Assembly (NCBI GenBank): GCA_000008085.1
Contig: AE017199.1
Location: forward strand, 210,001 to 242,000
Reading direction: 5' to 3'
DNA from: Nanoarchaeum equitans Kin4-M
GTDB taxonomy: Archaea; Nanobdellota; Nanobdellia; Nanobdellales; Nanoarchaeaceae
Length of the DNA: 32,000 bases
The notes under the pieces: generated by a model
Database searches by the model: none
What the model saw: only the letters and a program-made list of their open reading frames with translations
Told to the model about the DNA's origin: nothing
Made by a program: the position numbers and the translations under genes
Part shown: piece by piece, positions 8,562-31,066 of the stretch
Position numbering within the stretch: the first letter of the stretch is position 1
How the letters are laid out: each line of letters begins with the position of its first letter

Positions 8562-9196
8562 ACCGCTAATAAATAGTTATCCAAGTTCTTGGCGATTTCA
8601 CAGTTTTCTCTATATTCTATCAAAAAGGTCTTATTATAAGCTATAATGGATTTTACCTCTTTTTTACCACAATAAGTAAAAGAACTATCAATTAAAGAAC
8701 ATTCCTCCAATTTTTTATATATTTCGGGTTTTTCCATACTTGGAGTACAACAAGCTATTTGGTTTTTATATTGGGGGCCGTAAATAATATAAAAACAAGC
8801 TAAAGCGCTATTTAAATTACCAAAATTGGCCATATAATATAGAAAAGCCTTATAACAATCGTATTCTATATATTTTTCCAAAATATTACATTCTAAAGAA
8901 CCATACTTTTTTAGGCAAGCCAATTTTATATCGCTTAAAGTATAATCATCTAATTCCAAATCTAAAAACTTTAATTTATTTAACTCTTTGTTTACAAACT
9001 CTTTGGCCAATTCTTTCACATCTATTGGGTTAACACTACATTTTAGATTCTTTATAGCAGAAATTGTGGTTTCCTCTGAAGCTAAAGAAATAGCTTTTAT
9101 CGATTGAAAAATTGTATTTTTAGCAACAAACAAAGCAATAAAAAGGGATAAGGCTAATAAAATTAAATAATTTACGCTCTCAAGCGCTCTCCTCAT
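8546..9196 (-). CDS. N-terminally membrane-anchored Cys-rich protein (hypothetical)
   Basis: A single N-terminal hydrophobic helix ([15 protein letters not shown]) followed by a domain with about 10 Cys. Overlaps rps4 (17 nt) upstream and pth (16 nt) downstream on the same strand. Confidence 0.55.
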
Positions 9197-9722
9197 TAGT
9201 TTCCTCTTTTTGTTCTAGTTTTCTAGCTGGATGTTCTGGATTAGCTAATGGAGAAAAAGGCACAAACTCAATTTTGTCTTCTTCCTCTTTTTTAACCAAA
9301 TAAGATGGAGCATCTACTACTTCGCCGTTAACCATTATATGGCCATGTACTATAAATTGCCTCGCTTGTTTCATTGTTTTAGCTAAGCCTTTCCTTACTA
9401 ACATGGTTTGTAGCCTTCTTTCTAAAACATCTTTAACAGTCAAATCCAAAACATCATCTAATTCGGCATTTTCGCTTAATACTCCCAATTTCTTAAGCTT
9501 AGTCAAAAATCTTTCTTTTTCTTCGCTAATGTCTTGGCCTGCCGCTTGTTTAGCGTTTAGGTATCTAGCATAAGCACGCCATTTTCTAGCAATTGTTTCA
9601 GCAATCCATAATTCTCTCTTATTTTTTAACCCATATTCTTTCATTAATCTTTTTTCAATTATTAGTCTTTGCTTTTGCCATGGATGAGAAGGCCCTTCCC
9701 ATTTTCTTCTTTGTCTCCACAT
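9180..9722 (-). CDS. rps4: 30S ribosomal protein S4 (uS4)
   Basis: [17 protein letters not shown]-terminus and S4 RNA-binding domain ([32 protein letters not shown]). 180 aa. Confidence 0.9.
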
Positions 9723-9769: not shown

Positions 9770-10471
9770 ATGCGTTTTGATGGGAGAGACTATAATGAAA
9801 TAAGAGATACTGAAATGAAAATAGGAGTAATCTCTAAAGCGGATGGTAGCGCATATTGTAGGACTGGCAATACTATTGCTATCGCAGCAGTATATTTAAA
9901 ACCTGGTAGAGAACAATCCAATTTAAAAGTAAGCTATAGGATGCTTCCTTTCGCTGGAGAAGAAAGGAAAGGCCTAGGTTTAACAAGAAGAGAAATAGAA
10001 CTTAGCTATATAATAGCTAAAGCTTTAGAGCCAGCAATTATATTTGAAGAAATACCCTATTTAACAATCGAAGCTTCTGTAGAAATAATTAAAGCTGATG
10101 CCGGAACAAGAGTAGCAGCGATAAATGCTTTGTCCTTAGCTTTAGCCCATGCAGGAATTCCTATGAAAGCTTTGGTTGGAGCCATAGCAGTAGGAAAGGT
10201 TGGAGAAAAAATAGTATTAGATTTGAACAAACAAGAAGAAGACTATGATTCTGAAATAATAAAAAAGGAATTGCCCCAATATTACGAATACTATGGAGAA
10301 GGAAAAGCTGTCGATATACCTATGGCAATGTATAAGAACAAAATTACATTATTGCAATTGGATGGTTCTATAGATAGAAAATCCTTATTAGAAGCAATCA
10401 AATTAGGCAAGGATGGTATAAAGAGAATGATTGATTTACAAAAAATAGCTATAGAGGATTATTATTTTTAA
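9770..10471 (+). CDS. rrp41: Exosome RNase PH-type subunit (Rrp41-like)
   Basis: [21 protein letters not shown] and the phosphate-binding-type [24 protein letters not shown]. 233 aa. No Rrp4/Rrp42 neighbours. Confidence 0.75.
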
Positions 10472-10491: not shown

Positions 10492-10565
10492 GGGCCCGTA
10501 GCTTAGCTAGGTAAAGCGCCGGGTTGCGGACCCGGAGATCGCGGGTTCGAATCCCGCCGGGCCCG
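10492..10565 (+). tRNA. tRNA-Arg (anticodon GCG)
   Basis: Manual cloverleaf: acceptor GGGCCCG/CGGGCCC, D arm GCTT-AGCTAGGTA-AAGC, anticodon arm CCGGG-TTGCGGA-CCCGG, variable AGATC, T arm GCGGG-TTCGAAT-CCCGC, discriminator G. 74 nt GC-rich island. No encoded CCA. Confidence 0.9.
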
Positions 10566-10567
10566 GA

Positions 10568-11221
10568 TTATTTTTCCTCTATTTCAAGAAGCTTCTTTAA
10601 TACATCAAACATCTTCTTCTTTATATCAGGTTGTTGCTGTTGTTGTTGACTTGTATCGGGAACAGGCCTTGTAGCTAAGTATAACAAACCGACCATTATT
10701 CCAATTGGTAATATTACTGCTAAGAAAGCCAATATATTTTCGTCAATTTTAAATTCGGTCGGTCCTTTCTGCATTGTTGGGAAATTAATCCATGCGATGT
10801 ATATTAGAATTATAAAGGAAATAATTCCAATGAAAGCCGGCATTTTTATTTCTTCTTTGCGTACTATGCTACTAATTACCAAGAAAGAGAAAAACATAGC
10901 CAACAAAATATAAAAGCTTAATCCGAAAACATTTAGAAAAGACATAACCACATTAAAGCTTTCAGGACTTCTTAAATGGTATAAGATAAAGAAAGCAAAA
11001 ACGAAAGATACTAAACCAGCGTATTTTCTTGCTAATTTTTCTTTGTCTTTACCCAATAACGCTCGCATCGTAATGCTTAAAAAGAAAAATGTTACAGCAA
11101 ACACTGCCATAAAGGTAACTATAAAATGTAAAGTATGTGTTTCCTCCAAAACATTATACATATGTTTAAAATTGAGATATTTTATTATGAATTCAATTAG
11201 TTTATTCTCAGATTCGGCCAT
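10568..11221 (-). CDS. Multi-pass membrane protein, paralog A of a 3-member family in this window; contains a Q6 tract
   Basis: Hydrophobic helices. The C-terminal block FKIDENILAFLAVILPIGIMVGLLYLATR matches 24/29 positions in the adjacent ORF 11225..11737. The stop codon lies 2 nt after the tRNA-Arg 3' end. Confidence 0.6.
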   Translation of the reverse strand: MAESENKLIEFIIKYLNFKHMYNVLEETHTLHFIVTFMAVFAVTFFFLSITMRALLGKDKEKLARKYAGLVSFVFAFFILYHLRSPESFNVVMSFLNVFGLSFYILLAMFFSFLVISSIVRKEEIKMPAFIGIISFIILIYIAWINFPTMQKGPTEFKIDENILAFLAVILPIGIMVGLLYLATRPVPDTSQQQQQQPDIKKKMFDVLKKLLEIEEK

Positions 11222-11224
11222 AGT

Positions 11225-11737
11225 TTATTTTGTCGCAATATATAATATACCTACCATGACACCTATTGGTAGTAAAACTGCTAGAAATGCTAATATATTT
11301 TCATCTATTTTGAATGATGTTTGTTCCCCTCCCCCAATAAAAAAGATGGCGAAAATAACTAAAGCTATAATAGTGATAAATCCTAGTTTTACCCATTCAA
11401 ATATTTCTTTCCATTTATCGTCTACATCTATTTTTTGCATAGTTTGATAAACTTTCGAAATCTCTAATATAACAATACCGAAGAACAGAACAACTAACAA
11501 ATATATAATTTTGGGTCCGATGTTGAATAACCTTAATACTAAAGATTTGCTAGAAACAAAAATAAAACCAACCGCAAAGGCTATAACTCTTTTTACTTTT
11601 TGTTCTAGACTGGGATAAGTAATATCTAAAAACATATAAGTAATTATAACCGCTAAAATGAAGGGTACAATAACATCAAAAAATCCAATCGTGTCTAACA
11701 ATTTAATAGTATCGAGTGCATCGTATTTTACTGCCAC
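11225..11737 (-). CDS. Multi-pass membrane protein, paralog B (GTG start)
   Basis: Shares the C-terminal FKIDENILAFLAVLLPIGVMVGILYIATK block with paralog A. Shares the N-terminal motif LLDTIGFFDVIVPFIL with ORF 15113..15577 (VLEHTGYYDFIYSFTL). Confidence 0.6.
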   Translation of the reverse strand: MAVKYDALDTIKLLDTIGFFDVIVPFILAVIITYMFLDITYPSLEQKVKRVIAFAVGFIFVSSKSLVLRLFNIGPKIIYLLVVLFFGIVILEISKVYQTMQKIDVDDKWKEIFEWVKLGFITIIALVIFAIFFIGGGEQTSFKIDENILAFLAVLLPIGVMVGILYIATK

Positions 11738-11754
11738 ATCTAGTTTAATTGAAA

Positions 11755-11776
11755 ATATTTAAAAATTTTTAAATAT
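11755..11776. promoter_or_regulatory. Perfect 22-bp palindrome ATATTTAAAAATTTTTAAATAT carrying two divergent TTTAAATA boxes
   Basis: The + strand TTTAAATA (11768-11775) starts 26 nt before G-1 of the tRNA-His half (11794). The - strand TTTAAATA (from 11763) starts 26 nt before the GTG of paralog B (11737). The palindrome centre is equidistant (28.5 nt) from both. Confidence 0.65.
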
Positions 11777-11793
11777 CATTATATATAATCTCT

Positions 11794-11843
11794 GGCCCCC
11801 GTAGCTTAGTGGCAGAGCGCCGGGCTGTGGCCCCCGATGGGGC
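11794..11843 (+). tRNA. tRNA-His (GUG) 5' half gene: positions -1 to 37 plus a 13-nt GC-rich trailer
   Basis: G(-1), acceptor 5' strand GCCCCCG, TA, D arm GCTT-AGTGGCA-GAGC, G26, anticodon stem 5' strand CCGGG, loop C-T-GTG-G. This is followed by CCCCCGATGGGGC and T6 instead of a 3' anticodon stem or T arm. Confidence 0.85.
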
Positions 11844-11849
11844 TTTTTT
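11844..11849 (+). terminator. T6 run ending the tRNA-His half transcript
   Basis: An oligo-T tract immediately after the GC-rich trailer, the usual archaeal termination signal. The same T-run forms part of the valS TATA box. Confidence 0.5.
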
Positions 11850-11854
11850 AAATA
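11847..11854 (+). promoter_or_regulatory. TATA box (TTTAAATA) upstream of valS
   Basis: Starts exactly 26 nt before the valS ATG (11873). Confidence 0.5.
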
Positions 11855-11872: not shown

Positions 11873-14128
11873 ATGCCGTATAATCCTAAAGAAATAGAAC
11901 AATGGTATAAAGAGAATTACAAATATTTTTTTGGAGAGGGGGACAAAATATTAATTATTGATACTCCCCCACCTTACCCAGCACCATTATGGCATATAGG
12001 AGCGGCTTTAAGTTATGCTTTACAAGATTTTATTGCGAGGGGTTTTAGAAAATTGGGTTATAAAGTAATATTTCCTGAAGGCTTTGATGGGAATGGTATA
12101 CCAATAGAGATGTATTTAGAAAAATACGAAAAAATACCCTTCGGCTCTATAGATAGAGAAGAATATATAAAAAAATGTAGACAAATTCTAGATAGTTGGA
12201 GAGAAAAAATGGACAAAATCCTAAAAGATCTATTATTATCTATGGATTTTGAGCATAGATACAATACAGACGATCCTGAATATAGGGCTCTAACTCAAAA
12301 AACTTTCGCAGAGTTATGGGAGAAAGGTTTAATATATGAAGCGGAATATCCGATAAACTATTGTCCCCATTGTAAAACAGCAATTGCCGATGCAGAGATA
12401 GAAAGAAAAATCAAAAAAACTAAGCTAGTTTATATTAAATTTAAAATAAAAGATAGCGATGATTATATTACTGTAGCAACTACGAGACCCGAATTGCTAG
12501 GAGCATGTAAAGCTATTATTGTACATCCCGATGATGAAAGATACAAAAAATACCATAACAAAATAGCAATTGTTCCTTATTACAATAGAGAGATCCCGAT
12601 TATACCTCATAAAATGGCAGATCCAAATTTTGGAACTGGCGCAGTAATGATTTGTTCCTATGGAGATTGGGTTGATGTCCAAATATTTAGGGAATTGCAA
12701 CTAAAACCAGAAAAAATAATAGACGAAAATGGTAGGCTAACCATAGAGCCTGTTAAGGGGCTTACTACTAAAGAAGGCAGAGAAAAAATGATTGAAGTAT
12801 TAAAACAATTAGGAGTGGTGGAAAAAATAGAGGAAATAGAGCATTCTGTTCCAGTCCATGAAAGGTGTGAAACAGAAATAGAGATTATTCCAATGAAAGA
12901 GTTTTATTTAAAGCAATTGCCATTCAAAGAGGAAATAAAAAAATTATCTAAAGAGATAGAATTTATTCCTGAAAGGTATAGGAAAAACTTAGAGAATTGG
13001 ATAGATTCTATTACAATAGATTGGCCCATCTCTAGAAGAAGATGGTATGCAACAGAAATTCCATTATGGTATTGTCCCAAATGTGGTTATATACATGTAG
13101 CAAAGGATGGTAAATACCATCAACCTTGGAAAGAAGAAATGGTTTGCCCCAGATGTAATACAAAAATGGTCGGAGAAACAAGAGTACTAGATACTTGGAT
13201 GGATTCCTCTATTACAATCTATTATTTAATTAAAAAATATAGCAAAATACTAGGAATTGATGAAGAGGGATTATTTAACAATTACACTTTAAGACCCCAA
13301 GGCTACGAAATAATTAGGACTTGGCTATACTATACTTTATTAAGAGTATACCAACTAACTGGCAAAAAAGCGTTCGATTTTGTTGTAATCAATGGGATGG
13401 GCTTAGATAAACATGGTAGAAAAATGAGTAAAAGATATGGCAATGTCATAGAACCAGAAACATTGTTGGAAAAATATGGAGCAGATACATTAAGATATTG
13501 GTTTGCAATGGAAATCTCTATTGGAGAAGACTATAGAATTAATGAACAAAAGATAGCTGGAATAATGAAGTTTATGAATAAGGTATGGAACATAGCTAAT
13601 TACATATCGCAATACCAATATAGAGAAACCCAAAACTTAAAGCCTACAGATGAATGGATAATAAACTATGTAAAATATTTGGAAAACAAAGCTATAGAAT
13701 ATATAAGAAATTTCGAGTTTAATAAATTGGCAAGAGAGTTGTATAGATTTGTATGGGATGTATTTGCCAACCATTATATAGAGCTAACCAAGAAAAGGGC
13801 CAAAAATAATGACGATAGCGCTATATATGCGTTGTATTTTGTTTTCGAGAGAGTATTAAATATGCTATCTATATTTTCTCCAGGAATAGCTAAATATTTA
13901 GCTAAAAAACTATATAATAAAGATATAGAAAAGGAAAAACTAAAATACTGGGGCAAAGTTAGATTAGATCTATTATACAAAGGAGAAAAATTAATAGAGT
14001 TTAACAATTATGTATGGAAACTAAAGACTTCCCAAGGGAAAAAACTAAAAGACCCAATATCTATAGAAATACCCAAAGAATTAGAGATTTTCAAAGAGGA
14101 TTTGATATTATTGCACAACATACAGTAG
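11873..14128 (+). CDS. valS: Valyl-tRNA synthetase
   Basis: Class I aaRS: IDTPPPYP...WHIG (HIGH-type), KMSKRYGN (KMSKS). TTRPELLGACKAIIVHPDDERY and GTGAVMICSYGD are typical of archaeal ValRS CP1. Zn-knuckle CPHC...CPKC/CPRC. 751 aa, shorter than most ValRS. Confidence 0.75.
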   Translation: MPYNPKEIEQWYKENYKYFFGEGDKILIIDTPPPYPAPLWHIGAALSYALQDFIARGFRKLGYKVIFPEGFDGNGIPIEMYLEKYEKIPFGSIDREEYIKKCRQILDSWREKMDKILKDLLLSMDFEHRYNTDDPEYRALTQKTFAELWEKGLIYEAEYPINYCPHCKTAIADAEIERKIKKTKLVYIKFKIKDSDDYITVATTRPELLGACKAIIVHPDDERYKKYHNKIAIVPYYNREIPIIPHKMADPNFGTGAVMICSYGDWVDVQIFRELQLKPEKIIDENGRLTIEPVKGLTTKEGREKMIEVLKQLGVVEKIEEIEHSVPVHERCETEIEIIPMKEFYLKQLPFKEEIKKLSKEIEFIPERYRKNLENWIDSITIDWPISRRRWYATEIPLWYCPKCGYIHVAKDGKYHQPWKEEMVCPRCNTKMVGETRVLDTWMDSSITIYYLIKKYSKILGIDEEGLFNNYTLRPQGYEIIRTWLYYTLLRVYQLTGKKAFDFVVINGMGLDKHGRKMSKRYGNVIEPETLLEKYGADTLRYWFAMEISIGEDYRINEQKIAGIMKFMNKVWNIANYISQYQYRETQNLKPTDEWIINYVKYLENKAIEYIRNFEFNKLARELYRFVWDVFANHYIELTKKRAKNNDDSAIYALYFVFERVLNMLSIFSPGIAKYLAKKLYNKDIEKEKLKYWGKVRLDLLYKGEKLIEFNNYVWKLKTSQGKKLKDPISIEIPKELEIFKEDLILLHNIQ

Positions 14129-15594: not shown

Positions 15595-15606
15595 ACTTTT
15601 AAATAT
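15595..15606. promoter_or_regulatory. Shared bidirectional TATA element (CTTTTAAATATT) between paralog C and the UAU tRNA
   Basis: The + strand TTTAAATA (15598-15605) starts 26 nt before tRNA nt 1 (15624). The - strand TTTAAAAG (from 15603) starts 26 nt before the ATG at 15577. The TTTAAA palindrome is centred in the 46-bp spacer. Confidence 0.6.
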
Positions 15607-15623
15607 TAACTTAATCTGTCACT

Positions 15624-15716
15624 GGGCCCGTGGCTCAGCCTGGGAGAGCGCCGGCCTTATATGGCGGCCTCTCCTAAGAAAGCCGGAGGTCCCGGGTTCG
15701 AATCCCGGCGGGCCCA
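15624..15716 (+). tRNA. Intron-containing tRNA, anticodon UAU (tRNA-Ile-UAU) after splicing
   Basis: Acceptor GGGCCCG/CGGGCCC, D arm GCTC-AGCCTGGGA-GAGC, anticodon stem CCGGC/GCCGG, spliced loop C-U-UAU-A-A, variable AGGTC, T arm CCGGG-TTCGAAT-CCCGG, discriminator A. 93 nt including a 19-nt intron after position 37. Confidence 0.85.
15662..15680 (+). other. tRNA intron (canonical 37/38 position) in a bulge-helix-bulge fold
   Basis: Central 4-bp helix CTTA (15656-59) / TAAG (15675-78), flanked by 3-nt bulges TAT (15660-62) and AAA (15679-81). The outer helix is the anticodon stem. Confidence 0.75.
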
Positions 15717-24472: not shown

Positions 24473-27400
24473 TTACCATTCAACAAAGCGGGTTTCTTCG
24501 CTTTTACTTTTACATTGATAGATACTGCTAGCAATGCAGAGATTATTAACGTTAACTAGTATATAATAATTATAGCCATCGTTTGTTATTATAGGGGAAG
24601 CTTCTTCTCCATCGCTTAATACTACGTTCTCTTTTGGAGCTTTTATTATTGTATATTTATTACTCCCAATAGACACGTTACAAATTAGATAAGGATCGTT
24701 AACTGTAGTAGGAGAACCCGAACCAATTAATTTAACATTTCCTTTATTGTCTATTAGCATTGCAACCCAATTTGTTGAAATAGTTATCCCTCTATAGTTG
24801 GCGCCATCACTACTAGTTTTACATTCTATTTTATTAAAACCTGGAATGAATATTATATGTTTATTATCTGTAGTGTTAACCAAAAATATGTCTGCTGACG
24901 CTGGTTCTTTATATGTATTATGTGCACCATCTTTGTAATAAGAAGCGCTATCATATTTTCCGTATATGGCATAGTTATTTCCTTCTTTAACGATACAAAG
25001 TTTATCAACAGGATTACAATCACCAGGGTTTATTATTTTGTTGTTAGATATAAATATGTTAGCCTCATACTTAAAGCCACCATTAGTGTAGTCATAACAA
25101 TAGGCGTTCTTATAGGAGCATGCATACTGTGAGGGTTTTTGCTTTTCTACATAATTGCCGCCATTATCTTTAATTATCCATTTATCTATTAAATCGATAA
25201 ATACATTATACATTTTACAACTTCCTCCCTCATTTGCAACACACTGCCTGCCCGTACTGTAGTGTTGTACTTCTCCATTTAAAACAGTTACATTTACATA
25301 ATAATATTTGCTATCTGACCCAGCATAAAAAGTGCTGTATTTTCTATACCAGTTATTGTTATCTATAGTGATGGGAGAAGGATGGTCTATCTTTATAGTC
25401 TTTCCAGATCCAGTTTTTGAAACGTATAGTTCCCATCTCTTATTATTTGGATCAATAATTTTTGCTACAGCAACAACTTTACCAATATTTGCTCCACTAT
25501 AAGTAAACTCTGTATCATATAGATCGGGATCAATTCCGCTATTTCCCCAACTAGATCCAGATAGTTTAGAAACTTTTAAAGCACCTCTGTCGCCAATCTC
25601 GCCTTCAACTATCTTATATAAAGTTCCCCCAGTATTATAATAACAAGCTTCCGTAGTACATAATAATTCTCCATCTTCAATAGAGACACTTTCTCCATAA
25701 CTAATATTAACATATTCTATATTATTGTCACTTTTAAGTTTTATAGCCCGTACCGCACGGAAAGTATTGGGGACTGCATGTTCCATTATCCCATTAATAG
25801 AGAAAGAAAAGTTATTTAACACGGGAGCTATAGGTGTTTTCACAGCTTCCCTAAATATCAAATTCCAAAATATTGGCACATTTTGTTGTTTAACTATTGT
25901 ACCATCTTTCATAGTTACAACCTTTAATCCTTCACCATTCTCATTATATATAGCATACCCTGCCTTTGCAAATGGATTTTCAAATACGCATCCAAATAAG
26001 CCCATAATATCTTTAATTTCGTTCTCAGCTTTTATTTCTTTATTGGATACCTCTATAGTAAAGCAATTAGTCTTACTTTTTTCAAAGTTTGGGCTGCTAT
26101 AATAGTTATACGGTTGATAGCAAGCAATTCTATTGCCATAGGCAACAACTTTATTTTCCATATCGTATTCCACATATGGGTACTTACTTATATATATCTT
26201 AGAACCATCGTCATATAACCATACTTTTTTGTTGCCTATTTCCAATAATTTCCATGTATTTGCTGCTAAGTTAATAGAATAAACTTTATATTTTGGAGTT
26301 GGTAGGGATTCTTTTTTTCCACATCCATCAGATAATTTGGGAGTTTTGCTATCACTTATAGCGAAATAAATAGTATTAGAAGAATCTTTAATTTTTATTA
26401 TTCTCAAGTTAGGTATTCCGTTTCCTAGGTTTATTGATATTTTTTCATATGACCCATCGGGATTGCTAATGTTTATATTACAATTAATATTATTAACTTT
26501 TATAGAAGTTTTTCCATTGGTTATTTTGTAGCCTCCATTAGTTGGGTATATAGTTATATATGGATCTATGTCTATAGAAGTTTTATCACACTCAAGCTTT
26601 GCCTTGTTAGGAATACTCTTGTATATTATTGTATAGGTTTTTTTATTTCCATTAATTTGCATAGTAACAAACCCTTCATGAGAATCGCATTTGCCTTTAA
26701 CTAATTTATCATCGAGTGATAGAACTCTTATATCTTTAATGGTTCCACTACTACTATCTACTCCATTGACATAGCAGCTATATGCATAAGAAGTTGGAGT
26801 AACTGTTACTACTTTATTTTCAGTTTCTAATTTCTCTCCTAACATTTTACTTAATATATCTTTCCATCCTTCCAATAGTTTTTTGCAAATATTATCGCTC
26901 CAATTTATATGGATTTCTCCATTAAAGGGTATTAAGAAGGTTTTCGATGGGGTTGCTATGTATATAACTTTCTCTTTAGTCTTATAACTTTCGTTGCAAA
27001 ATATATCTGTTATAGCATACCATCTTTTTATTGATAGAGAGATATTTTCTTCATTACCAAAAATTTCTATTAAGCATTTCCCTATATTTTCCATTACATT
27101 TTCACTATTTGCAGAGATGCTATCAATAGCACATTCGCCCTCCCCCTCAATATTAACACTTGACATCTTTCCTATCAATTTTTGTTGTAGTTTGCTCATT
27201 ATTGTTGGTATGGCATTTGCTGTAACATAAGCGATAATGGGTTTACATGGTTCTTTATTTATTGTGCAGATGTTTATTCTTTTTATATTAGAGTTGGGAG
27301 TGTAAAATAATAATAGGGATCTCAAAATTGGAAAGAATGGCAATTGGTCCAAAAATGCACCAGCAACATATAAGGAATTAAAATTAAATTGATTAGTGCC

Positions 27401-30400
27401 ATTTACATAATTAAAAACATCTTTTGGTAATAACCCAACACCATAACTAACATTAATTTTTATGCTTTTTATTTCCTCTATAGCTTTACTAATATTGTTT
27501 AGCATAATATTATCGATGTCGATTTCATTATATCGATTTATTGCGAGCACTTGAGAGAAATCTACTTTATCACCATTAGCAGTTTCTCCTAAAAATGGAA
27601 ATATTATATTTTCATTTGTTCCAGAACTGGAATCTATAGGTTCTTTTTTGTATTCCTTTCCTGCTAAACTATAAAATAGAGCCTTAAACTCTTTTTTGAA
27701 TGTATCTAATATTAAACCTTTGTCAAAAACAAATTGGTTATTATTGTATATAAATTGATAACCATCTAATATTTCCAAAAGGTTTTTACTCCCTTTCGCT
27801 ATCTTATTGCAGCTATCAACATAGAAATATGCATCTTCAACAATTCTTTTTGGTTGTACCGTTCCTGTTGGGGTTGATAGTACCCCAAAAACCGAACTTA
27901 AAGTGTTTATTATGGTATCAACAGCTTTTCCAACATTTTGTATGGCTTTTTCTAATTGTTTGCTACTCTCTTTACATGTTTTATACCTAGCATATATAGA
28001 GTTAATTATTAATTCTACTTTATTGTCAAACAATGTTAAATAATCATCGACCAACCCAATTAAATCGTTTAGCACAAGCTGGTATGTTCTTAATAATAAC
28101 TCTTCGAACTTTTTATATTCTGCATTAAGAATGGAAGCCAGATTTTCGATACCCTTATTTATATATTCGGTGCTTCCTTTTATAAATTCTTTGTATAGGT
28201 TTATTGTATTGTCCAGGTCTTTTTTGAGAGTACTTTCTTGCTCTTCAATAATTTTTTTGACTTCTTTTACTTTGCTTATTAATTGTTCTAACTGGGCTTT
28301 TTTGTCTGGATAAGAATCTGGGTCGATTCCTTCTATAATAGAAAGATAGCCTTTAAGTTTTGCTAATGCTATCTGGGCATTGGCCGCTTTTGATAGCTTA
28401 GTATCAATACATTCTAATAGAATATTGTATGAAACTTTATTAGTTAGTCTATTGATTATCGCTTGTTCAACAGAGCTTGGTATTAAAGCAATGGCTTTTA
28501 ATGTTTTATAATCTATTAGTTTTATTTCTCCAATTGTACTAGGCAATACCAAAGAGTTAATAGAAGAAACAACCGAACTAAAGTAATTTGTTAATGATGA
28601 GGTGACTTGCGATAAACTATACGCCAAATTATATAAAGAATTGGTTAGTAAAGTGTTTATTATAGGTTCTAATTTGTTATCTAGACTAGACAAACCCATC
28701 TCTAATTGGGATTTTACCATTTCTCTTATGTATTTTACTTCGTTAGAAGAATATATCGACAAAGGTGTTAGGACACTTAATGCTATATAATTTTGTAGCT
28801 CTTGTTGGTATAGTCTTTCCAAATCTATATTAGCTGTTAAAAACATTAATATATCAACCTCGCCCAAGCAATGGGATATACTATTCGATACCCAATTTTT
28901 AATGAGTTCTTTTTTATTATTGTACTGGACAAAGTCATCAATGTTTAATTCATTAATAATTTCATTAACAATATCATTAACAACTTTGTATGCTGCATAA
29001 TGTATTAAATAGTTACTAAGAGTGGCATAACTATTATTTCGTATATTAGAAAGAAGAACGTTTCTAGCATTTCTAGAGAGAAGGTTATTTCTAACATTTA
29101 TTATAACGCTATCACATATAGGAGGAGGCATTGCTTTATAGCATTGATATCTAGTATGCCACATATACCATGTTACACAATTAGTAATGCCATACCATAA
29201 GAAGGATTGGTCTATATCTCCATATAAATAAGCCAAAAATTTCGATATAAAATAGGCCTTGTCTATATTGTTTTCTCCAAAATAGTAAGTTGTTTGGTTG
29301 GCACACTCTTTTAATAATTGTTCATACCTTGGATCATTTGGGTTTGTTTTAGTTAATTCTATACAGCTCTCTAGAGATATATTCATATCAGACAAACCAA
29401 TTATTTTTTGTATTTCATCAATGTTTATTTGCTTATATAATTCGTGCAATACCCTTCTTTTTATTTTAGGTAAAACTTTCTTTAATGCAGGACAAGAATA
29501 ATTAGATATATTCAATGATTCTTTTAATGCTTTTACCGCTTCATCGATTTTTTCTTTAATGAAAGTTAATTGATTTATGCCTACATGGGATAACTCGTTT
29601 TCCAGCCTTTCTATATTTGTTATATTGGCTCTTAATTCTGTAAATGCTTTAAGCTTTAAGGTTTTCCCACTTGAAGTTGCCTCTAAAATAAACCAAGCCT
29701 CGCTTTCTGTTATGTTCCATATGCCCTTTCTCGCTATATATTGGGCTTTAAATATGTTTGAATAGTTGTTAGGTATTAAAGAACCTATAGAAAGGTTTAC
29801 GATTCCATTATCTGGATTCGTATCATAACTAATATTTAAAATACCTATGATATGGGGATTTTCAATTCTTTCTCCATTAGCTTCTAACGATATATTGTAT
29901 ACTGGGTATTTAAAGGATCTTGTCGAGATTTGAGCAATACAATTGTTTATGGTTATGTTTGTACTATACAAAGAAGCAGAAGACCCATCGAATAAAGTAG
30001 CATTTACCCTTAATATTATATTGTTATTATTAAGAAGCTCTGCTATTGATTTTGTATCTAATATAGGATTAAACATATTTATCCAATTGTCTGTAGTAGT
30101 GGTAGAGATATCGGAGATTGTATTATTCTCGCATGTATAATTTAGGTAAACCATGTCCTTATTATTGTATTTAAATGTGACAGTGTAGTTATTCTCCACA
30201 TAGCTTATTGATATATTAAAAGCGCTAATATGCCAATCTAGAGAAGTTTTTGCTGTTATATTAATAGTTTCTAACTTACATGGCACAAGCAAACCATCTT
30301 TGGTATATGTTATATCAGTTATATTTGTATCACATTTAAATTTATCTATAAACAAAGTGCTTTTCAGTTTAACCAAATCTTCATACAATTTGCTGCTATT

Positions 30401-31066
30401 ATCTATTAATTGTTGATAATTTTTAGATAGTTTGACTAATTCTTCTGTTCTCTTTTTTTCCCATTCTATAGATTTACTAATGCCTTTCGATACACAATCG
30501 ATAGCGCTTTCTATTGCTGATACGATGCTGTCCGTTGATGCCATGGTATTCCCAGCAACAGAACAATCAACGGATGGAATATTCCCTTCTATGTTAATTA
30601 ATTTCCCTAAAGAACCCAAATTATTAAGTCTTTCTCTTATTTTTCTTTGGGTTTCATTTAAATAATCTCTTATTTCCCTAACTGGGGATAAAACTAAATT
30701 TGCTATCCTATATTTTAATGCTAAAGCCTTTTGTTCGCCTTGCGATAGTATATCACATACACTAGACAAAAACTGTGAAACCCCTTTTAATGGGTTATTT
30801 GATTCTATAAAGGATTCTACCAATTTAGTATTTGATACAACTCCTGATTTTTTCAAGAAGTTTAGTAAATAATCCAAATCTTTGAATTTATCATCTTTTT
30901 TCGGCAATTCACAAAAACTTTTATAGGTTTGTAATGCTATATGTTCTTCTTCTCCCGTAGCAGTATTTTTTACTTTCCAAACACAACAGCCATAGCTATC
31001 GGAAATAGCAATAGGAATAGAATTTAGCAATAATAAACTTAATAGTAGTGTAAACCTTGTTTTCAC
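24473..31066 (-). CDS. Giant exported protein, 2197 aa, no recognisable domain (hypothetical surface/adhesion protein)
   Basis: GTG start with TTAAAAGC 26 nt upstream. Signal peptide MKTRFTLLLSLLLLNSIPIAIS. An uninterrupted 6.6-kb frame in AT-rich DNA. N-terminal part is mixed helical and N-x-S/T-rich beta, the middle (aa ~500-1130) is long and helical/heptad-like, and the C-terminal ~1000 aa are Y/N/G/K/C-rich and beta-like. No C-terminal anchor. Confidence 0.8.
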   Translation of the reverse strand: MKTRFTLLLSLLLLNSIPIAISDSYGCCVWKVKNTATGEEEHIALQTYKSFCELPKKDDKFKDLDYLLNFLKKSGVVSNTKLVESFIESNNPLKGVSQFLSSVCDILSQGEQKALALKYRIANLVLSPVREIRDYLNETQRKIRERLNNLGSLGKLINIEGNIPSVDCSVAGNTMASTDSIVSAIESAIDCVSKGISKSIEWEKKRTEELVKLSKNYQQLIDNSSKLYEDLVKLKSTLFIDKFKCDTNITDITYTKDGLLVPCKLETINITAKTSLDWHISAFNISISYVENNYTVTFKYNNKDMVYLNYTCENNTISDISTTTTDNWINMFNPILDTKSIAELLNNNNIILRVNATLFDGSSASLYSTNITINNCIAQISTRSFKYPVYNISLEANGERIENPHIIGILNISYDTNPDNGIVNLSIGSLIPNNYSNIFKAQYIARKGIWNITESEAWFILEATSSGKTLKLKAFTELRANITNIERLENELSHVGINQLTFIKEKIDEAVKALKESLNISNYSCPALKKVLPKIKRRVLHELYKQINIDEIQKIIGLSDMNISLESCIELTKTNPNDPRYEQLLKECANQTTYYFGENNIDKAYFISKFLAYLYGDIDQSFLWYGITNCVTWYMWHTRYQCYKAMPPPICDSVIINVRNNLLSRNARNVLLSNIRNNSYATLSNYLIHYAAYKVVNDIVNEIINELNIDDFVQYNNKKELIKNWVSNSISHCLGEVDILMFLTANIDLERLYQQELQNYIALSVLTPLSIYSSNEVKYIREMVKSQLEMGLSSLDNKLEPIINTLLTNSLYNLAYSLSQVTSSLTNYFSSVVSSINSLVLPSTIGEIKLIDYKTLKAIALIPSSVEQAIINRLTNKVSYNILLECIDTKLSKAANAQIALAKLKGYLSIIEGIDPDSYPDKKAQLEQLISKVKEVKKIIEEQESTLKKDLDNTINLYKEFIKGSTEYINKGIENLASILNAEYKKFEELLLRTYQLVLNDLIGLVDDYLTLFDNKVELIINSIYARYKTCKESSKQLEKAIQNVGKAVDTIINTLSSVFGVLSTPTGTVQPKRIVEDAYFYVDSCNKIAKGSKNLLEILDGYQFIYNNNQFVFDKGLILDTFKKEFKALFYSLAGKEYKKEPIDSSSGTNENIIFPFLGETANGDKVDFSQVLAINRYNEIDIDNIMLNNISKAIEEIKSIKINVSYGVGLLPKDVFNYVNGTNQFNFNSLYVAGAFLDQLPFFPILRSLLLFYTPNSNIKRINICTINKEPCKPIIAYVTANAIPTIMSKLQQKLIGKMSSVNIEGEGECAIDSISANSENVMENIGKCLIEIFGNEENISLSIKRWYAITDIFCNESYKTKEKVIYIATPSKTFLIPFNGEIHINWSDNICKKLLEGWKDILSKMLGEKLETENKVVTVTPTSYAYSCYVNGVDSSSGTIKDIRVLSLDDKLVKGKCDSHEGFVTMQINGNKKTYTIIYKSIPNKAKLECDKTSIDIDPYITIYPTNGGYKITNGKTSIKVNNINCNINISNPDGSYEKISINLGNGIPNLRIIKIKDSSNTIYFAISDSKTPKLSDGCGKKESLPTPKYKVYSINLAANTWKLLEIGNKKVWLYDDGSKIYISKYPYVEYDMENKVVAYGNRIACYQPYNYYSSPNFEKSKTNCFTIEVSNKEIKAENEIKDIMGLFGCVFENPFAKAGYAIYNENGEGLKVVTMKDGTIVKQQNVPIFWNLIFREAVKTPIAPVLNNFSFSINGIMEHAVPNTFRAVRAIKLKSDNNIEYVNISYGESVSIEDGELLCTTEACYYNTGGTLYKIVEGEIGDRGALKVSKLSGSSWGNSGIDPDLYDTEFTYSGANIGKVVAVAKIIDPNNKRWELYVSKTGSGKTIKIDHPSPITIDNNNWYRKYSTFYAGSDSKYYYVNVTVLNGEVQHYSTGRQCVANEGGSCKMYNVFIDLIDKWIIKDNGGNYVEKQKPSQYACSYKNAYCYDYTNGGFKYEANIFISNNKIINPGDCNPVDKLCIVKEGNNYAIYGKYDSASYYKDGAHNTYKEPASADIFLVNTTDNKHIIFIPGFNKIECKTSSDGANYRGITISTNWVAMLIDNKGNVKLIGSGSPTTVNDPYLICNVSIGSNKYTIIKAPKENVVLSDGEEASPIITNDGYNYYILVNVNNLCIASSIYQCKSKSEETRFVEW

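Follow-up and report, generated by a model that had tools for sequence, protein, structure and literature searches.

Genomic context of the element

The window analysed here, a stretch of 32 kb of Nanoarchaeum equitans Kin4-M, carries a short GC-rich element on the plus strand between NEQ251, which diverges from it, and the gene of the valyl-tRNA synthetase (ValRS, NEQ252). Exact protein matches for the genes on either side, the coordinates of the element's own parts and those of the two complete tRNA genes are collected in Table 1. The same 5′ half of tRNA-His, in the same locus, is found in identical form in four independent metagenome/run assemblies that carry N. equitans.

The window as a whole has a GC content of 30.8%, and only three islands in its 32 kb reach 60% GC or more, namely the two complete tRNA genes and the element itself, which takes up 50 nt (11794-11843) and is followed by six thymines. 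Further upstream, two neighbouring genes, NEQ250 and NEQ251, encode small membrane proteins that are paralogues and have a C-terminal motif in common, KIDENILAFLAV.LPIG.MVG.LY.AT. Elsewhere in the window, a single ORF of 2197 aa (24473-31066, minus strand) is very large for a 490-kb genome.

Table 1. Positions, within the window, of the GC-rich element, its parts and the surrounding genes.
Feature	Position	Strand	Basis or remark
NEQ247 (uS4)	9180-9722		Exact full-length match, N. equitans Kin4-M
NEQ248	9770-10471		Exact full-length match, N. equitans Kin4-M
tRNA-Arg(GCG)	10492-10565		ARAGORN/Rfam
NEQ250	10568-11221	-	
NEQ251	11225-11737	-	Divergent from the His half
Box A / TATA-like hexamer TTTAAA of the His half	11768-11773	+	Begins exactly 26 nt before G11794
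G-1	11794	+	Inferred transcription start and His-specific extra 5′ nucleotide; sequence, promoter spacing, published start
tRNA-His body, positions 1-37	11795-11830	+	Sequence, Rfam tRNA alignment, identity to tRNA-Arg
Acceptor 5′ strand G1-G7	11795-11801	+	Sequence
U8 A9	11802-11803	+	Sequence
D arm GCTT/AGTGGCA/GAGC (stem, loop, stem) with G18 G19	11804-11818	+	Sequence
G26	11819	+	Sequence
Anticodon-stem 5′ strand CCGGG	11820-11824	+	Sequence
Anticodon loop CTGTGG (C32 U33 G34 U35 G36 G37)	11825-11830	+	Sequence
Anticodon GTG, positions 34-36	11827-11829	+	Sequence
G37	11830	+	Sequence
GC-rich 13-nt trailer CCCCCGATGGGGC	11831-11843	+	Sequence, hairpin prediction; role from literature
T6, archaeal oligo-T terminator of the half-gene	11844-11849	+	Sequence; terminator rule (PMC3491384)
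NEQ252, ValRS	11873-14128	+	Exact match to AAR39104.1 / Q74NF3; Pfam tRNA-synt_1 and Anticodon_1
tRNA-Ile(UAU)	15624-15716		Intron of ~19 nt after position 37, the same site as the tRNA-His split

A tRNA 5′ portion that stops at position 37

Read on the plus strand, positions 11794-11849 consist of GGCCCCCGTAGCTTAGTGGCAGAGCGCCGGGCTGTGG, then CCCCCGATGGGGC and then TTTTTT, with ctct directly 5′. An initial annotation made from the letters had read the 50-nt island as tRNA positions −1 to 37 with GUG at 34-36, followed by the trailer and T6, and the sequence is exactly as it was stated there. What is found is a contiguous, well-formed tRNA 5′ portion that ends at 37/38, a known split and intron position. 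Two of the identity elements of tRNA-His are present in it, G−1 (11794) and the GTG anticodon (11827-11829), while C73 would belong to the 3′ half.

Comparison with the tRNA-Arg(GCG) gene located 1.3 kb upstream returned 30 identical nucleotides out of 37 tRNA positions (81%), a likeness that stops at position 37. In a permissive local scan, the Rfam tRNA model aligned positions 1-37 with high posterior probability and gave a score of 19.3 bits (gathering threshold 29, E = 0.069), which is this low because the T arm is missing. Neither ARAGORN nor Rfam at the gathering threshold called the element in the 32-kb window, where their only calls are tRNA-Arg(GCG) and tRNA-Ile(UAU). A minus-strand reading of the element was rejected, given that the ARAGORN and Rfam scans made no call there. 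On its own, the 50-nt RNA folds with no greater stability than shuffled sequences do (z = 0.65), as one would expect of a tRNA half, and this does not count as positive evidence.

The trailer was said from the start to be self-complementary, and it does fold alone as a 5-bp hairpin. A scan for terminator-like sites returned one site here, a 6-pair stem with a T-rich tail at 11829-11844, versus 0.2 expected, and this count is what speaks for taking the GC hairpin and T6 as the intrinsic terminator of an upstream gene, with the tRNA likeness being incidental. Such a reading is extremely improbable: the 37 nt before the hairpin fit tRNA structure and match the neighbouring tRNA to the extent given above. 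We rejected the terminator of an upstream gene as a candidate because NEQ251 lies on the opposite strand and is divergent, so that there is no co-oriented transcript to end.

An intron-containing tRNA gene spliced in cis was also considered and rejected. T6 comes directly after the trailer, the ValRS ATG follows 23 nt further on and no matching T arm plus CGGGGGC is present anywhere in the window. Searching the window for a T arm plus acceptor 3′ strand gave matches only in tRNA-Arg and tRNA-Ile, with no CGGGGGC partner for His, in agreement with the initial annotation, which had found neither a T arm nor a 3′ acceptor strand for the element in the 32 kb. The complement of the trailer is likewise found nowhere else in the 32-kb window.

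Promoter and terminator geometry

The spacing between the upstream TTTAAA and G11794 (Table 1) is also that of tRNA-Ile, in which TTTAAA lies at 15598 and G1 at 15624, and tRNA-Arg has a near-consensus TTTTAA/TTTAAT at about −26. The rule published for N. equitans tRNAs and tRNA halves is the same, namely a TTTAAA that precedes the start by 26 nt and a T-stretch terminator downstream (PMC3491384). Since TTTAAA is found only 48 times on the plus strand of the 32 kb (0.0015 per nt), its exact placement at −26 is unlikely to have arisen by chance. As a split gene would, the element has its own box A, 26 nt before its first tRNA nucleotide; it is without a 5′ leader and runs into an oligo-T directly after the trailer. 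This spacing supports leaderless transcription from G−1, which agrees with the published finding that N. equitans lacks RNase P; its tRNAs keep the initiating purine at their 5′ ends (PMC3491384).

The 56-bp spacer between NEQ251 and the element (window 11737-11794) contains a second TTTAAA (11758-11763), a palindromic hexamer at a distance of 26 nt from the start codon of NEQ251 on the minus strand. Together with the box at 11768-11773, it looks like one of two tightly packed divergent promoters, for NEQ251 and for the His half respectively.

Correspondence with the published tRNA-His half

Chan et al. (2011; Table 1 in PMC3218864) list the tRNA-His(GUG) 5′ half at genome position 221794 (+), with a precursor of ~49 nt and 37 mature nt, and the 3′ half at 409246 (+), with a precursor of ~53 nt and 36 mature nt, the two being joined at 37/38. 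The former start equals window position 11794 plus 210000 exactly, and the 37-nt tRNA part with its trailer of 12-13 nt agrees with the published lengths of ~49 and 37. By RNA-seq, Randau (2012, Genome Biol 13:R63) detected all 11 tRNA halves. In that account the 5′ half of tRNA-His immediately precedes the ValRS gene and has the −1 base encoded in it, and the trailer and leader stretches of the halves are described as reverse complementary (PMC3491384). Podar et al. (2013) give six trans-joined tRNAs for N. equitans: iMet, His, Lys, Gln and two Glu (PMC3655853). The substrates of the NEQ endonuclease include the trans-spliced bulge-helix-loop that split halves make (PMC2761253). A full-text literature search for the sequence of the half or for plausible 3′-end sequences returned nothing relevant.

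These records bear out what the initial annotation had proposed. The split-gene architecture holds, as the published 5′ half at 221794 (+) coincides with the element (PMC3218864); the listing of His as a split species was right, His being one of the six trans-joined tRNAs (PMC3655853); and the extra 5′ G, taken then for the His-specific G−1, is the −1 base encoded in the 5′ half (PMC3491384).

Search for the 3′ half

The partner had been expected to begin with GCCCCATCGGGGG, the reverse complement of the trailer, followed by one nucleotide and CCCGG. This literal form did not hold. As a pattern (GCCCCATCGGGGGNCCCGG), it returned 71 matches in the GTDB representative genomes, among which we assume N. 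equitans to be included, and none of them is from Nanoarchaeum; all are in GC-rich bacteria or unrelated archaea. The lengths given in PMC3218864 imply a 3′-half leader of ~17 nt, not the 13 nt of the trailer complement. The additional nucleotides, between the duplex and position 38, probably form a helix with anticodon-loop bases and a bulge, and the literal pattern would fail because of them. The ~17-nt leader would hold the complement of CCGATGGGGC or of CCCCCGATGGGGC.

A more tolerant pattern was built from the leader core, the T loop and the acceptor 3′ strand (GCCCCATCGG, a gap of 14-32 nt, GTTCRANNC, 4 nt and YGGGGGY). It gave only two bacterial chance matches in the JGI metagenomes and none in IMG/VR, and a looser version was flooded with chance matches. 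From sRNA coordinates and protein lengths in published tables, we estimate the position of the 3′ half to be between NEQ461 (pyrophosphatase) and NEQ462.

A decayed, truncated tRNA pseudogene followed by a chance hairpin, devoid of function, would be compatible with the silence of the tRNA finders and with pattern scans that returned no N. equitans partner. We give this reading next to no credence. Promoter and terminator are perfectly placed, the tRNA breaks off precisely at 37/38, where introns canonically sit, and the element matches the nearby functional tRNAs in GC richness and in how well it is formed. A transcript, a matching 3′ half and six trans-joined tRNAs, His included, have been published (PMC3491384, PMC3218864, PMC3655853), and published RNA-seq already contradicts a functionless remnant.

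Relation to the downstream ValRS gene

T6 overlaps a further TTTAAA (11847-11852, plus strand), whose distance from the downstream ValRS ATG is again exactly 26 nt. This hexamer is possibly a separate promoter of a leaderless ValRS mRNA, to be placed beside the published read-through: the T6 terminator is reported to be leaky, with His-half reads that continue into ValRS (PMC3491384). Considering ORFs of at least 120 aa on both strands of the whole window, 16 out of 28 are preceded by a box-A-like hexamer (TTTAAA, TTTATA, TTTAAT or TTTTAA) at a distance of 25-29 nt from a candidate start codon; because of this proportion, the data are consistent with leaderless mRNAs being common in this genome.

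The reads of the half pass into the ValRS mRNA and are said to 'define its 5′ UTR', for which a regulatory role was speculated (PMC3491384). This observation, along with the short distance (23 nt) from the hairpin and T6 to the ATG and the overlap between T6 and TTTAAA, could suggest that the tRNA-like segment serves the ValRS mRNA, mainly or additionally, as a structured 5′ leader, acting on stability, on termination versus read-through or on translation. We regard it as very unlikely. ValRS need not depend on the half, because it has its own box A at −26 of the ATG, as many apparently leaderless genes do. The anticodon is that of His, not of Val, and the trans-splicing role has been documented independently.

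The relatives of N. equitans argue in the same direction. The closest ValRS relatives in a large protein collection are 69%, 63% and 62% identical, the next being at ~55%, and upstream of ValRS in these three (62-69%) there is no GC-rich island and no tRNA half. The 69%-identical ValRS comes from the metagenome-assembled genome GCA_054016815.1 (contig JBPMCH010000013.1), which keeps full-length homologues of both NEQ250 and NEQ251 upstream of ValRS in the same order and orientation; its 79-bp intergenic region upstream of ValRS (L198 9922-10000) nevertheless has no half. The relatives' loci are without the half even where gene order is kept, so that its placement at ValRS is, as far as the available relatives show, a trait of the N. 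equitans lineage. In published work, the terrestrial relative Nst1 has no trans-joined tRNAs but full-length orthologues that are ~85% identical (PMC3655853), and Nanopusillus acidilobi is likewise without trans-joined tRNAs (Wurch et al. 2016, PMC4935971).

It is unlikely, though it can be imagined, that the element couples production of the tRNA-His half to ValRS expression in a lineage-specific arrangement. Since T6 overlaps the TTTAAA of ValRS, termination, read-through (which would yield a structured 5′ UTR) and leaderless initiation would compete on the same 9 bp; such coupling would be lineage-specific, the arrangement being missing from the closest relatives that share the gene order. 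Regulatory coupling between the half and ValRS is thus possible and, as yet, unsupported.

Discussion

The element is almost certainly the 5′-half gene of the trans-spliced tRNA-His(GUG) of N. equitans. The locus is already known, having been described in 2005 and verified by RNA-seq in 2012. The split tRNA genes of this organism were reportedly described by Randau et al. in that earlier year (Nature 433:537). Our own analysis provides the organism, the sequence anatomy, the promoter and terminator geometry and the lack of a partner within the window; for the partner's location, for the transcripts and for joining and cleavage we rely on the literature.

On these grounds, RNA polymerase would start at G11794, 26 nt downstream of the TTTAAA box A, and this nucleotide would be kept as the His identity element G−1, because N. 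equitans is without RNase P. The transcript would comprise tRNA positions −1 to 37 plus the 13-nt GC-rich trailer and would mostly end at T6. As an intron-like segment, the trailer would pair in trans with the complementary leader of the separately transcribed 3′ half, which would be encoded ~187 kb away (genome 409246), and the tRNA body would fold across both RNA molecules. The heteromeric splicing endonuclease NEQ205/NEQ261 would then remove trailer and leader at 37/38, at what may be a relaxed bulge-helix-bulge-like (or bulge-helix-loop) junction, and an RNA ligase would join the two halves.

With respect to the published N. equitans tRNA-His 5′ half, coordinate, ValRS neighbour, the 37/38 position, lengths, G−1 and promoter all match, hence both are the same object. 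Similar arrangements are found elsewhere in Archaea. The split tRNA-Asp(GUC) of Aeropyrum pernix and Thermosphaera aggregans and the tRNA-Lys(CUU) of Staphylothermus also consist of two separately transcribed halves with complementary flanks, joined through a bulge-helix-bulge (at 37/38 for Asp) by a heterotetrameric endonuclease (PMC3218864); these are, however, other tRNAs in other lineages, and the distance between their halves ranges from a few hundred bases up to a few kb, versus ~187 kb for His. The tri-split tRNAs of Caldivirga maquilingensis (Fujishima et al. 2009, via PMC3218864) are assembled in trans through complementary leaders and trailers, as for His, but come in up to three pieces, with other split positions and in a free-living crenarchaeon. 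Closest at hand are the tRNAs with a cis intron at 37/38, of which tRNA-Ile(UAU) (15624-15716) is the example in the window. They share the interruption site and the same endonuclease and ligase machinery, the cis intron being equivalent to the His trailer and leader together. In a cis intron tRNA both exons are on one transcript, whereas the 32-kb window contains no 3′ exon for His.

The locus can serve as a positive control, that is, an unusual feature that was read from sequence alone and that standard tRNA finders miss. The mildly new points are only comparative and local, namely the relatives that are without the half at ValRS and the half's terminator overlapping a putative ValRS promoter. 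More generally, split tRNA genes bear on the debates over the origin of tRNA and over fragmentation in reduced genomes.
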